A stretch of 64,000 nucleotides of DNA from Octopus vulgaris. Lineage: Eukaryota. The notes below the pieces were generated by a model that saw only the letters and a list, made by a program, of their open reading frames with translations, did no database searches and had not been told where the DNA came from. Made by a program: the position numbers and the translations under genes. This document shows, in pieces, positions 23,406-58,117 of the stretch (the first letter of the stretch is position 1; each line of letters begins with the position of its first letter). The DNA lies in assembly GCA_951406725.2 (NCBI GenBank), contig OX597817.1, positions 134,292,001 through 134,356,000 of the forward strand, given 5' to 3'.

Positions 23406-23763
23406 GAATGAATGTGGATTAACAATAAAATGAATGTGGATTAACTGTTGAACTGGACGGACGTCTATTTGTTTCTCTCCCGAGTCAGTAGCAAGCTACA
23501 CAGCTTCAAAACTAACTGACCTTAAATATATATATATTTGTAACCACGTGTTTGCCTACAAACCCGTAAGTACGTTTTCATTTAACTACAAATTGTTATA
23601 TACACCTGTTTTTCTTTTAATATCCTCAAACAACCAAATAATCAAAAACTCACACCCTTAAGAGAGAACATTTATATATATATATATACACTTCTTTAAC
23701 TCCCAAGAAAGAATATATATATTTTCAAAAATCAAAAGGAAAACAAACAAAAGAAAAACAAAC

Positions 23764-24992
23764 ATGACTAACTTGCAGGCCTGCAACAGACGAAATTGGT
23801 CTGATAACGAAATTGATGTTTTAATAAACACATGGCTCTCTCTTTCCCAAACAGAAAATCTAAATGTCTTGTGTTTGAATGAGATTGCCGAAAAAACATC
23901 ACAAGTGGTCAACACACGATCCGTCAAACAGATTCGTAGCAAGTTGAAACATATCGAAGTATCTTTCAAACTGATAAGAGGCCATTATGAAAAGCTTCTA
24001 CATATTTTCACAGTTCAAGAACAACAACAGCTAGAAAATCAGCAGCCACAACAACAACAACAACAGAATGAGCCACTCCTGGTTCCTAGCACAATGGCTG
24101 ACCCTGACATCGGTCAGGCACAACAACAACAACAACAGCCACAGCAACAAGAACAACAACAGCCACTCCTCAACTCTAGCTTACTAGACGATTCACTAAA
24201 TGCCAGTATCTTTTCACCGCTCTCACAGCAACCACCACAATTATCATCATCATCATCACCACCGCTGCCACCATCGTCTTCTATCACCAAAAATACCAAC
24301 AGAAAACCAAATAAGAAACCACTGCCCTCTTCCCCCACATCACCACCTCAATACTACTGCAGTAACAAAAACTTAAAGAAACATAGGAAGCAGAATGCGC
24401 CCCCACGGCACAAACAAGAAATCCCCAAATATGCCGCTATTCACTGCGCCAGAGACTCTGCACAAATAGTGACTGCATCTTCACGCATCTACCCGGCACT
24501 AGACGCACTACTGGCCAAGGCCAAAGCACGCATCCCACAATAACATCAACACCACCAAATAGTAAATCGAAATTCAAAACACACACAACTCGGAGTCCCA
24601 AAATCTGCCGGTATTCCCAACGTGAGAGAACATGTCTACTGAGTGACTGTCCCTTCACTCATCTTCCAGGGACCCGACGCACAAACGGAAACGGGGCCTC
24701 AAGCCAACACACAAACCTGAATAACAATAAAAATAGAAACACACCATGCTGCAGTAATGCTGGTCCAGTCTTTTCAGGAAGACACAAAAACAACAACAAC
24801 AAAAGTGGAAACTACAACCCTATCCAACAGTGCAACCACACCTCCAGCCAAAAACTGCTCCCTAAGCAGGAAAATTCTTTTTTAGCCATGGTGAACATGG
24901 CAAAAGAGATACACAAAAACATTCTAGCCATCACTCAACACCATCCTATGCTATTACCCCAGTGCACCAATTCCCCACATTGCTGCCACTAA
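23764..24992 (+). CDS. LINE ORF1: Myb/SANT-like domain, Q/S/P-rich linker and two CCCH zinc fingers (one -1 frame change at ~24387-24425)
   Basis: Frame 1: RRNWSDNEIDVLINTW..EIAEK..RSVKQIRSKLKHI. Frame 3 is open 24387-24992 and encodes PQICRYSLRQRLCTNSDCIFTHLPGTRR and PKICRYSQRERTCLLSDCPFTHLPGTRR. About 409 aa if joined. Confidence 0.8.
24878..24901 (+). promoter_or_regulatory. Candidate -1 ribosomal frameshift site (T TTT TTA) with adjacent hairpin
   Basis: Heptamer 24878-24884 is in X XXY YYZ phase with ORF1 (tcT TTT TTA). The -1 frame is the ORF2 frame, open from 24866. Hairpin GCCATG-gtgaa-CATGGC at 24885-24901. Confidence 0.6.
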
Positions 24993-27900
24993 CACACACA
25001 AAAAATCCAAGCCCCCTGCAACAGTCAAAACCAGCCACTACACTAACCTCCACATTCCTACTCAATGCACAAGGTGTCAGCCCTTCCATCAATGCACAAA
25101 AATGGAAGGTCCAATTCATTGAAGACTGGGTTGGTAACCATTCACACCACATCCCTTTCTTCATTCTCACTGAGACCCACCTTGACAACTCCCACTTGGA
25201 AGCCGAAGTGAGAGTGAAGAATTTCACAACCATCCGCGCGGATCGTATCGGCAGGAGGAAGGGTGGAACTGCCATTTTCCTGCATGATTCATTTACGGCA
25301 GATGGAAATAGTATATTCTCCAACGGCTACTGTGAATCAGTCACCGTGCACAACAAAGCCAATGATCTGACAGTAATTGGGCTCTATAGGCCGCCCCAAA
25401 CACCCATACTGTGCTTTAAAGAATGCCTCAACAGCATTAAGTGCTTTATTCAACAGTGCCATTCTAGCAACATACTCATGATGGGAGACTTCAATCTACC
25501 CTGTGTTGACTGGACTACAAACTGTTTGAAACCAAGCACTCCCGCCTCAACCGCTGACAAAGAAGCAGCAGAGTCACTTTTCGACTTTACGAATGAGTTT
25601 TTCTTGTCCCAACTTGTCCTTGCACCAACAAGACATCAGAACATTTTGGACCTAGTGTTTAGTAACCACACTAACACTATACATAACGTTACAGTGGAAA
25701 AAACCCTTCTTTCAGACCATGACATGGTTCTCTGTAACATGAAATTCCACCAGCCGAAAGCTAATCCTAGTGACCTTCCTCCAGCCCACCCATTTGACAA
25801 CATGGATCTCCATAAAGCCAACTGGGATGCAATCAGGAACGAGCTATCAAATGTTGACTGGTCCTTTACACATACACACATCTCCACCAACCATAAAACA
25901 TCTTGGCAGATCTTTGTAGACACCGTCACAGACATATGTGCAAAACACTCCCCACCAAGACCTGTGAACAAAAAGTGCAGAATCCCCCAAAACAGAAAAA
26001 CCATTATCAGAAAAATAAAAAGAACAAACAAAAAAATTAACAAACTAAAGTACTGCCAACAGCAACACACACATTCGACGGCTATCGCACTGCTTGAATC
26101 CAAAAAATATAACCTCCAACAATGCATGAAGTCCCTCATCAATAACCAAAGATCAGCTGAGGAGAAGTGGGCCATTGAAAAAATCAAACTCAACCCCAAA
26201 GTGTTCTTTTCATTTGCGAGGAAACGCAGGGTCACTGTCTCCACTGTAGGCCCTCTAATTGACGAAACTGGCACTCTCCAAGATAATGCCAAATCCATGG
26301 CCGAGATACTGCAGAAACAATACTGCTCTGTTTTCAGCAATCCTGATATGGCCGATCTGGGCTGTATCAGTGATGTCAACCCCCAACACACTATATCGGA
26401 CATAACGTTTAGTGCCCCTGATGTCTTAGCGGCGATAAACGAAATAAAACACAATTCAGCAGTAGGCCCCGATAGGTTCCCTGCTTGTGTCCTGAAGGTG
26501 TGTCGACACCAACTTGCATCTCCCCTTGCTAATCTGTGGAGAAACTCACTGGATGCTGGCTATATTCCAAAAAACCTTCTGTCCCAGTCTGTTGTCCCAG
26601 TTTTCAAAAAGGGAAACAAGTCCCTTGCAGTGAATTACCGTCCGATCTCACTCACCTCTCATATCATCAAGGTATCTGAGAGGGTGGTGAGATCTCAAAT
26701 AACCCAATTTCTGGAAAGCAACAGACGGCTGATCTCCAACCAACATGGGTTCCGTAATGGAAGGGACTGCCTAACGCAGCTCCTGCATCACTTTGAGGAC
26801 ATTTTGAGAGCTTTGGGAGAGGGCTCCAACACCGATGTCATCTACCTTGATTTCAGTAAGGCCTTCGACAGGGTCGATCACAAGATCCTATTGAAAAAAC
26901 TATCCAACATTGGTGTCTCTGGAAAGTTACTGAAATGGATTAAGTGTTTCCTGACAGACAGATCTCAACATGTTGTAGTTGAAGGGGTAAAATCAAGCCC
27001 AGCCAAAGTCAGTAGTGGCGTTCCGCAAGGCACTGTGCTGGGCCCACTTCTTTTCATCATTTACATTAATGACATTAATGACATCATCAAGCACAGCAAC
27101 ATAAAAATCTTTGCAGATGACTCCAAGCTACAGAAGGTCATAAATGAGGCGAGTGACCGGACATGCCTTCAGTCAGATCTACTGGCTGTTATCCAATGGG
27201 CAGAAAAAAACAATATGCTGCTGAACGAGGATAAATTTGAGCTAATCCACTTTGGAAAAGAGGATGCCCTGAAACTCCCATACTCCCTTCCTTCAGGTGA
27301 AACTCTCGCGGCGTCCAACAACATCAGAGACTTGGGAGTAATTGTGGACAACAACGTAAGCTGGGCCACTCATATAAACACCAAAGTTGACATGGCCCGC
27401 AGAATGTGTTCCTGGATTCTCAGAACTTTCCAGTCGAGAGATATCCACACCATTATCCTTCTCTTCTCCACTTTTGCCCGACCCCACCTTGAATACTGTT
27501 GTCCACTGTGGTCTCCCCACACAATACAAGGTATCATAAAAGTCGAAGCACCTCAAAGGGCAATCACAAAAAAGATAGATGGCATGACAGGCCTCGACTA
27601 TTGGGGTCGACTAGAAAAGCTAAAACTCTATTCTCTCCAACGTCGTCGTGAGCGCTACATCATCTGCATGATGTGGAAAATATTCCATCAGCATTGCCCA
27701 AATGATGTTGGCATCACCTTTAAGGTACATCCAAGGCTTGGGCCCCGTGCCATCCGCCCAAAACAAAAATCGCACTCTCATCTCATAACAACAATACGGC
27801 ACAATTATTTCACCTCAATTGGCCCCGCTCTCTTTAACATTACACCAAAACACATTAAAACAGAAACTGACCCTATAGGGTTCAAGAAGTCTTTGGACAG

Positions 27901-27997
27901 ATTCCTTCAAGAAATCCCGGATAAACCCCCTACACCCGGATATGTCTCTGTAAACAATAACTCTCTACTTGAGTGGGCCATAGTGCCCAAATTCTGA
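24962..27997 (+). CDS. LINE ORF2: apurinic-like endonuclease + reverse transcriptase
   Basis: APE motifs LLNAQG, LTETHL, GLYRPP, MGDFN, LDL, SDH. RT motifs NYRPISL, QHGFR, YLDFSKAFD, GVPQGTVLGP, FADD, DLGV. CR1-like C-terminus RPHLEYC..WSP, LYSLQRRR. The frame is open from 24866 and the annotated start is a GTG. Confidence 0.97.
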   Translation: MHQFPTLLPLTHTKNPSPLQQSKPATTLTSTFLLNAQGVSPSINAQKWKVQFIEDWVGNHSHHIPFFILTETHLDNSHLEAEVRVKNFTTIRADRIGRRKGGTAIFLHDSFTADGNSIFSNGYCESVTVHNKANDLTVIGLYRPPQTPILCFKECLNSIKCFIQQCHSSNILMMGDFNLPCVDWTTNCLKPSTPASTADKEAAESLFDFTNEFFLSQLVLAPTRHQNILDLVFSNHTNTIHNVTVEKTLLSDHDMVLCNMKFHQPKANPSDLPPAHPFDNMDLHKANWDAIRNELSNVDWSFTHTHISTNHKTSWQIFVDTVTDICAKHSPPRPVNKKCRIPQNRKTIIRKIKRTNKKINKLKYCQQQHTHSTAIALLESKKYNLQQCMKSLINNQRSAEEKWAIEKIKLNPKVFFSFARKRRVTVSTVGPLIDETGTLQDNAKSMAEILQKQYCSVFSNPDMADLGCISDVNPQHTISDITFSAPDVLAAINEIKHNSAVGPDRFPACVLKVCRHQLASPLANLWRNSLDAGYIPKNLLSQSVVPVFKKGNKSLAVNYRPISLTSHIIKVSERVVRSQITQFLESNRRLISNQHGFRNGRDCLTQLLHHFEDILRALGEGSNTDVIYLDFSKAFDRVDHKILLKKLSNIGVSGKLLKWIKCFLTDRSQHVVVEGVKSSPAKVSSGVPQGTVLGPLLFIIYINDINDIIKHSNIKIFADDSKLQKVINEASDRTCLQSDLLAVIQWAEKNNMLLNEDKFELIHFGKEDALKLPYSLPSGETLAASNNIRDLGVIVDNNVSWATHINTKVDMARRMCSWILRTFQSRDIHTIILLFSTFARPHLEYCCPLWSPHTIQGIIKVEAPQRAITKKIDGMTGLDYWGRLEKLKLYSLQRRRERYIICMMWKIFHQHCPNDVGITFKVHPRLGPRAIRPKQKSHSHLITTIRHNYFTSIGPALFNITPKHIKTETDPIGFKKSLDRFLQEIPDKPPTPGYVSVNNNSLLEWAIVPKF

Positions 27998-28087
27998 CTT
28001 GAAAGACTTCACCAGGTGGTGCTATTAAGTTAGACATGGCCTGGGCCAATAATGGCCGAAACCTATCAAAGTATCAAAGTATCAAAG

Positions 28088-57253: not shown

Positions 57254-58117
57254 AGATTGATTTGATTTGATCTAGCTTCATCTTACGATCTGTGGCCATG
57301 TTGGGGCACCGCCCTTTGGTTTTGCTACATAATTTTACTTCACGGGTGTTTTTTAGGAATTGACATTTGGTGCATGAGGGAGTTTGATGCCACTGCCCTC
57401 ATGTGAACCTACTGCCGCGAAGTTGGTTCATCTGGGACACTTGGCAGTAAGAGGTCCAGTTTTATTTTGAAGACACCTACGTCCACCCCATGCAGGTTTC
57501 TCAGGTCCTTCGGGGGGATATTGAAGAGCTGTGGTCCTCTGAAACCCAGACTCTTGCATTATCTTGTCCTTTAACTTGATGGCAAATCTGGAGTCCTTGG
57601 CACTATGCAGTGGCGCCTAGTTATAGTATTTGTGACTCTCGATGCCAAAGTTTGGGACAAGTCCCTCTAGGATCTTCCAGATGTATATTAGGGCATATCT
57701 TTGTCGCACACGCTCTAAGGAATAGAGTCTTAATCTGTTGAGTCTTTCCCTGTAGCTTATATGCTGCATAGAGACTATCTTCGTGTAGCTTCGTTGGATT
57801 GACTCAAGTTCTCAGATTAATTTCACACTGGTTTGTTACCATAGCTGAGAGCAATAGTCAAAGTGGCTTAGGACAAGTGTCCTCCAGAGGGCCAATATGG
57901 TTTCCTGAAATCTTGTTCGAAAAGTTCTGAGAATCCATCCGGTCAGCCGCCTGCATTTCATTGCCAATTTAGCAACATGAACATGGAAGGATGCATCATT
58001 ACTCATGTAAATGCCCAGGTCTCGCACTAGCTGTGCCTCTGGGATTGCAATGCCTCCAGGTCCAGTGTATTTAATGGGTATTGCATTTAGTTTTGCATGC
58101 TGATAACGGGGTCGAAG
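57254..58117 (-). mobile_element. 5'-truncated, decayed CR1-group LINE related to 23406-28087
   Basis: VRDLGIYM..GWILRTFRTR..HFDYCSQLW and LYSLERVRQRY..IWKI parallel the intact ORF2 C-terminus; 3' motif GGCGGTGCCCCAACATGGCCACAG; (TCAAA)n tail. Confidence 0.9.

Follow-up and report, generated by a model that had tools for sequence, protein, structure and literature searches.

The window, a 64,000-nucleotide stretch of Octopus vulgaris DNA (GenBank assembly GCA_951406725.2, contig OX597817.1, positions 134,292,001 to 134,356,000, forward strand), holds a full-length LINE flanked by two (TA)n arrays. The element is an APE-type non-LTR retrotransposon, with an APE endonuclease and a reverse transcriptase (RT) in ORF2, 5′-truncated dispersed copies, and a simple-repeat 3′ tail; we take it to be of the CR1 group, the RT trees made here containing only loci collected in this analysis. 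It belongs to a family designated A, which is young and abundant. Its features are as follows.

23434..28087, plus strand: full-length APE/RT LINE of family A, from the 5′ end common to most full-length loci to the 3′ tail
23764..24992, plus strand: ORF1 (stop codon 24990-24992), 409 aa and unbroken to the junction in the intact copy L011
23788..23982, plus strand: weak Myb/SANT-like domain at the ORF1 N terminus (25.6 bits; cut-off, 27)
24429-24506 and 24603-24680, plus strand: two CCCH-type zinc-finger repeats in ORF1 (PF14608; E value, 0.003, below cut-off)
24863..24865, plus strand: TAA that shuts the −1 frame 12 nt 5′ of the heptamer
24866..27997, plus strand: ORF2 frame, intact, 1043 codons, first ATG at 25478
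24878..24884, plus strand: slippery heptamer U UUU UUA (ORF1 Phe-Leu), predicted −1 shift site and indel hotspot among genomic copies
24885..24901, plus strand: hairpin adjoining the heptamer (6 bp, −10.5 kcal/mol in the window copy)
24885..24992, plus strand: dual-coding overlap; frame 0 gives the helix-like ORF1 C-terminal tail and frame −1 a low-complexity linker
24983..24985, plus strand: in-frame CTG, 7 nt 5′ of the ORF1 stop, homologous to a family B ATG; candidate re-initiation start
25040..25750, plus strand: APE endonuclease domain with invariant Asn at 25064 (model pLDDT, 95; L1 endonuclease match)
26612..27340, plus strand: reverse transcriptase domain (PF00078; E value, 1.8e-29)
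28064..28087, plus strand: 3′ tail of three 8-nt tandem repeats leading into (TA)n

The modeled endonuclease matched that of L1 (Z, 23; rmsd, 2.4-3.0; 204-213 aligned residues), model residues 1-236 corresponding to chain residues 6-239. The Asn at 25064 was invariant in the 24 aligned rows with a residue there and by alignment offset corresponds to L1 residue 14, which we take to be catalytic. The closest named protein relative (P0035) came from another octopod, Argonauta hians. Elsewhere in the window, positions 57650-58096 of the minus strand hold a 5′-truncated 3′ piece of a related LINE (37% identity to ORF2) beside (TA)n. Several 5′-truncated copies in the collection (L036, L046-L049, and L061) start with short tandem duplications of their own first bases, as if RT had repeatedly jumped templates.

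An earlier note, made from the letters of this stretch, had described an ORF2 frame that opens at 24866 and overlaps the end of ORF1 in the −1 frame, a correctly phased T TTT TTA within ORF1, and an ORF2 without an early ATG, and all three observations were confirmed. The −1 frame opens directly after the TAA, and TTTTTTA is phased T|TTT|TTA on the ORF1 codons Ser-Phe-Leu, giving the X XXY YYZ arrangement of an HIV-1-type −1 frameshift with the downstream ORF in the −1 frame and open from the site. The first in-frame ATG (25478, in ILMMGDFN) lies 3′ of the invariant Asn, the TETH Glu, and the YRPP Tyr, as aligned to the L1 endonuclease, and is residue 147 of the 237-residue APE domain, so that 146 residues precede the first AUG. 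Calling ORF2 AUG-less is correct for family A, with no in-frame AUG before the endonuclease, and not clade-wide, since the sister families B and C have a linker AUG. As a property of a single element the heptamer is weak evidence, within chance (about 0.18 phased canonical heptamers expected in 42 codons), and it goes beyond chance only across families.

Other family A copies were collected by a DNA search of the element's own genome, in which 40 of 895 candidates were scored (all near-identical) and 30 loci were compared. At 24891 the window copy carries a minority allele, G (T in 28 of the 29 other loci), and T at this position gives a hairpin stem of 7 bp. ORF1 of the window copy stops prematurely at 24541-24543; one C is missing from the C run near 24400, which is complete in 23 of the 25 other loci covering the site. 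A second programmed −1 shift in ORF1 near 24400 was rejected, as this minority 1-nt loss explains the break. With ORF1 broken upstream, ribosomes from the window copy's own ORF1 AUG would not reach the heptamer; the ORF1-ORF2 junction is a family trait, not a trait of the window copy alone.

Across copies and related families the heptamer and its phase are conserved. Phased U UUU UUA was kept in 9 of the 12 families with a CCCH-bearing ORF1 and a readable junction (identity down to about 30%), the other three having variants (L257, U7A; L264, U UUU UUG; L235, phased A AAA AAC). All four families found in the octopus genome (A to D) carried T|TTT|TTA at the homologous ORF1 Phe-Leu (FL), with APE identities to family A of 73% (B), 60% (C), and 30% (D). 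Families B to D were found by searches with distant proteins; loci from two further protein queries were read only for the families named here. A metagenome scan that used the CCCH fingers, not the junction, as its key yielded seven loci in families E, F, G, and H, and the site was present in all seven. Among 80 LINE contigs inside MAG assemblies, 31 lacked an APE match, 12 were too close to a contig end, and 37 were readable; a CCCH-type ORF1 was found in 4 of these 37, all of which were counted (L268, with an exact U UUU UUA, and the three variants). Families from outside the octopus genome are represented by one to three contigs each, and G (L171) and L257 are each known from one copy, with ORF1 and ORF2 fused in frame, for which we infer the −1 phase.

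The codon before the heptamer encodes Ser, Asp, His, or Thr, and its last base is always T. Given the amino acids and each family's own codon usage, the probability of the site was 0.009-0.036 per family. Fourfold sites had an identity between families of 0.21-0.33, versus about 0.26 by chance, in every measured pair except A-B (E, L257, L264, and L268 being outside the measurement), so shared silent ancestry does not explain the heptamer. If A/B, the lineage in which the site was discovered, is excluded together with the two fused copies, six exact sites in eight families at a P value near 0.03 correspond to a probability on the order of 1e-8, independence being assumed. The heptamer is conserved at the nucleotide level beyond amino-acid need, across lineages about 35% identical in ORF2. 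In the tree of loci collected here, L257, L264, and L268 combine a CCCH ORF1 and an FL/U6R site on an RT lineage separate from that of families A to H, which suggests either an old module or an exchange of ORF1. In L235, whose ORF1 likewise has CCCH fingers, FL/U6A is absent; besides its phased A AAA AAC there is an in-frame AUG, 42 codons 5′ of the Asn.

The overlap is also conserved as an open frame. In the −1 phase it begins 3-24 nt 5′ of the heptamer and continues without a stop for 45-89 codons, as far as the Asn; across seven families the overlap contained no −1-frame stop in 390 codons, versus 31 expected from the upstream sequence (166 stops in 2056 codons). When the same peptides were recoded synonymously, all seven families were open with a P value of about 1e-6 (0.035-0.60 for single families). 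Copies of C1 (L054-L077, compared with L090, L091, and L093) have lost 84-96 nt of the overlap, a multiple of three that includes the ORF1 stop; C1 spread despite this loss, and the APE Asn codon is now where its ORF1 ends.

We consider low-level programmed −1 frameshifting on U UUU UUA, making an ORF1-ORF2 fusion, to be the probable mode of ORF2 expression. This was the core of the earlier note's proposal, and conservation supports it strongly; the two additions made there, a hairpin stimulator and a tethering purpose, fared less well (see below). Ribosomes would begin at the ORF1 AUG, and most would read through, yielding ORF1p with its helix-like C-terminal tail, while a few percent would slip back one base on U6A, either through tandem slippage on Phe/Leu or through Phe slippage in the P site while the ribosome awaits tRNA-Leu(UAA). 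The slipped product would be a minor ORF1-linker-APE-RT fusion of about 1,410 aa, containing the N-terminal domain, the CCCH fingers, APE, and RT without the ORF1 tail. A few percent may suffice for an enzyme required in few copies. U6A alone is reported to give 4-6% −1 frameshifting in reticulocyte lysate (PMC3458567), and UUA decoding is reported to modulate the frameshift rate (PMC6547452, PMC6771820). The search for a conserved RNA stimulator was negative, and slippage is therefore likely to be driven by the slipperiness of U6A itself.

The hairpin described in the earlier note (stem GCCATG/CATGGC, loop gtgaa) is present at 24885-24901. As a conserved stimulator it was rejected, being family specific and abutting the heptamer: the spacer is 0 nt, and the energy is −10 kcal/mol in family A, while the eight other family variants reach only 0 to −2.8 kcal/mol. 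Stimulation of U6A by a stem-loop is reported to peak at a spacer of 7-8 nt (PMC3458567). Folding of 24878-24990 was no better than that of shuffles (z, −1.39), and no conserved stem-loop at a 5- to 8-nt spacer was found in 60-nt windows (z, −3.2 to +0.7), the signal being strong only in A (spacer, 5) and modest in E. An alternative family A stem from about +6 (−6 to −10 kcal/mol) was likewise set aside, as it is not common to C or D. The family A hairpin would probably be melted while the heptamer is decoded, its visible correlate being slippage during copying.

Foremost among the alternatives, though unlikely, is termination-reinitiation, in which ribosomes would restart in the −1 frame near the ORF1 stop (in A at CUG 24983 or UUG 24980, in B at an AUG) and make no fusion, as in SART1 or AUG-independent L1. 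A commentary that calls LINE ORF2 initiation an open question cites UAAUG coupling in SART1 (PMC3894237), and the ORF2 start of L1 is reported to be codon independent, any sense codon being tolerated in place of its AUG (PMC1965478). Possible starts do occur here: an in-frame linker AUG lies 7 nt 5′ of the ORF1 stop in family B, with a CTG at the same position in A, family C has a linker AUG 20 codons 5′ of the Asn, and in D an ATA overlaps the ORF1 stop at the start of APE. With linker AUGs in B, C, and L235, re-initiation remains a rival or a second route. No start codon, however, is conserved at one position, that of B's ATG being TTA in C2 and ATA in two B loci (L035 and L037), and A, D, E, F, H, L264, and L268 have no in-frame Met before the Asn. 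An AUG of the SART1 type, at or adjoining the ORF1 stop, is absent from A (CTG and TTG only) and present only in B, and an L1-type spacer between separate ORFs is absent, the ORFs overlapping in the −1 frame. ORF1 terminates at the Asn codon itself or 3′ of it in six families (C1, E, F, H, L264, and L268), so that a downstream restart would remove the first APE strand. Re-initiation also leaves unexplained both the nucleotide-level heptamer and a −1 frame that is open for 30-83 codons 5′ of the stop.

Slippage by a polymerase rather than by the ribosome bears on the behavior of the T6 run, which is an indel hotspot in family A. Among the first 100 copies in a list of 368, the run had a different length in 41 (by hand count, 20 of −1, 10 of −2, 9 of −3, 1 of +1, and 1 of +3); the corresponding figures were 8 of 98 for B, 6 of 55 for C1, and 0 of 24 for D. 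At 22 other runs, length changed in 0-4 of 13-30 copies each. Copies with −2 (n = 10) and −3 (n = 9) were spread over several haplotypes that also hold T6 copies, so the indels are recurrent and found no lineages. Hairpin stability tracks this instability, a stable abutting hairpin and a high indel rate occurring together in A only, which suggests hairpin-driven RT slippage, with a sequencing or assembly artefact as the alternative; the cause may be a nascent cDNA hairpin behind the A run. HIV RT slips on U6A in vitro (PMC5737442), and template structure is reported to influence RT slippage (PMC5737552). That so costly a run is kept, although synonymous codons could remove it, argues that the nucleotides matter.

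On this rival account RNA polymerase II would add one U (or drop two), and ORF2p would come from the edited mRNA or from genomic copies already fused. The hotspot and the slippage of HIV RT on the same run speak for it, as do in-frame fused copies in A, B, C, and L257, yet we judge it very unlikely. Fused copies are few (11 of 100 listed in A, 4 of 98 in B, 2 of 55 in C1, and 0 of 24 in D), those of A form no lineage, and D has no length change at all (n = 24). ORF2p of L1 acts preferentially in cis; if ORF2p copies its own mRNA here too, fused copies should dominate.

Slightly less probable again is that U6A is kept for another RNA-level role, such as binding by the CCCH fingers of ORF1p, or by a protein constraint on Phe-Leu, with ORF2 reached by internal entry. 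CCCH fingers bind U/A-rich RNA, and FL plus the helix-like tail that follows is conserved in distant ORF1 proteins. A protein constraint does not fix T|TTT|TTA, though, a binding site needs no −1 frame that opens just upstream and stays open, and L235 substitutes another canonical heptamer.

Splicing, with TTTTTTAG as an acceptor joining an upstream AUG exon to ORF2, had been raised in the earlier note and finds some footing in the G that follows the heptamer in most families, making a pyrimidine run plus AG, but it is highly improbable, since family C has TTTTTTAC and L264 has TTTTTTGG at this position, 376 family A copies have the junction 30-mer 3′ of the AG and 368 have both flanks (counted with different patterns), and of 30 unselected copies 28 continue into normal upstream sequence, 2 are 5′ truncated, and none is spliced. 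Contigs of four sequencing runs spanned the junction with no joint ending at 24885 (the RNA status of these runs being guessed, with strand and level invisible and rare forms dropped).

A purpose for the fusion, tethering of a Myb domain to the endonuclease, had also been suggested, and this part is not supported: the Myb/SANT match is below the Pfam cut-off and confined to A to C, and family D keeps the same site without it, its ORF1 having a weak PHD-like N-terminal match. (TA)n stands directly at the 3′ end of 16 of 17 family A and B copies versus 0 of 3 family D copies, which is no more than suggestive of microsatellite targeting by the Myb-bearing families; APE could equally explain these ends. 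A search for longer CCCH proteins found no naturally single-ORF relatives (weak evidence), and a gene model of the fused form PHD-CCCH-APE-RT (P0091) has no FL region and could have arisen by gene-prediction bridging. Clusters in the ESM Atlas were all unnamed, with 10-24% of their members carrying zf-CCCH, and neither the viral contig scans nor the first scan of genome contigs gave a match.

Other junctions were also seen. Among relatives without CCCH fingers in the MAG assemblies, phased canonical heptamers lie just 5′ of the ORF1 stop in L239/L242 (U UUA AAC), L246 (A AAU UUA), L301 (G GGA AAC), and L233 (U UUU UUA), mostly single copies, and L240, L245, and L266 have a −1 overlap but no heptamer. 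ORF1 and ORF2 share a frame with one stop between them in L232, L238, L250, L252, L260, L285, and L256; five of these seven continue D-x-C/Y-F, and two have UGA-CAA contexts, which we take to resemble readthrough signals.

Compared with known systems, the site has the same U UUU UUA, phased Phe-Leu, as HIV-1 gag-pol and Semliki Forest virus 6K, and the HIV polymerase likewise lies downstream in the −1 frame. FL and FF products depending on tRNA-Leu(UAA) have been described at these viral sites (PMC6547452, PMC6771820). There, a spacer (optimum, 7-8 nt [PMC3458567]) separates the heptamer from a stem-loop, whereas no conserved one was found in the LINE, which moreover is non-LTR, has neither protease nor LTRs, and has its shift site 5′ of a conserved ORF1 tail, so that the tail is lost. 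Among APE-type non-LTR elements, Dictyostelium TRE5-A and TRE3-A require a −1 frameshift for ORF2 according to a figure legend in a review; they differ in host and in an ORF2 with a C-terminal zinc finger, and the legend names neither a slippery site nor a test (PMC5911963). Germline non-LTR elements of Paramecium are suggested to need recoding at the ORF1/ORF2 junction; their clade is specific to ciliates, and the recoding proposed is +1 frameshifting, re-initiation, or readthrough, not a −1 heptamer (PMC5405496). SART1 of Bombyx and mammalian L1 are likewise bicistronic LINEs with low ORF2 output, but stop-start coupling or re-initiation gives them a separate ORF2p (PMC3894237, PMC1965478), whereas here the ORFs overlap for about 115-265 nt from the slippery site. 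The CR1/L2 lineages of the Jockey superfamily share an APE and RT ORF2, a tandem-repeat tail, and a modular ORF1, often with PHD; the main text of the ORF1 survey describing them does not mention CCCH, Myb, or frameshift (PMC4120745). In the searched text of a large frameshifting review, the single “non-LTR” passage concerns HeT-A and TART (PMC5009743), and two further papers (PMC5006619, PMC4700185) added nothing. No published U6A site or CCCH ORF1 was found for such LINEs, although Repbase entries, subscription papers, or supplements may mention one; the −1 frameshifting route is little documented for LINEs.

More broadly, and tentatively, CCCH-ORF1 LINEs over two deep RT lineages may use the Gag-Pol strategy of retroviruses, on a bare U6A unaided by any RNA stimulator, with tuning by the supply of tRNA-Leu(UAA) or by their own CCCH protein; junction recoding (by several −1 heptamers or by stop readthrough) might then be the usual route to ORF2, with an interchangeable Myb/PHD module of the fused enzyme helping target choice. 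Worked LINE examples give a free-standing ORF2p, and the slippery site described here speaks instead for an enzyme in which ORF1 and ORF2 are fused, and shows precisely which bases to mutate. If correct, this would change the annotation of ORF2p in these elements; at present, among the 52 database relatives in which the APE start could be detected, 31 gene calls begin 3′ of the conserved Asn (a figure dependent on the gene caller). It would also make available a naturally occurring frameshift site that works without a stimulator and on which host tRNA pools and anti-frameshift factors can act. Independently of this, family A indicates within a genome that a shift site may double as a hotspot of copying changes, with about 40% of new copies altered, and yet be retained.
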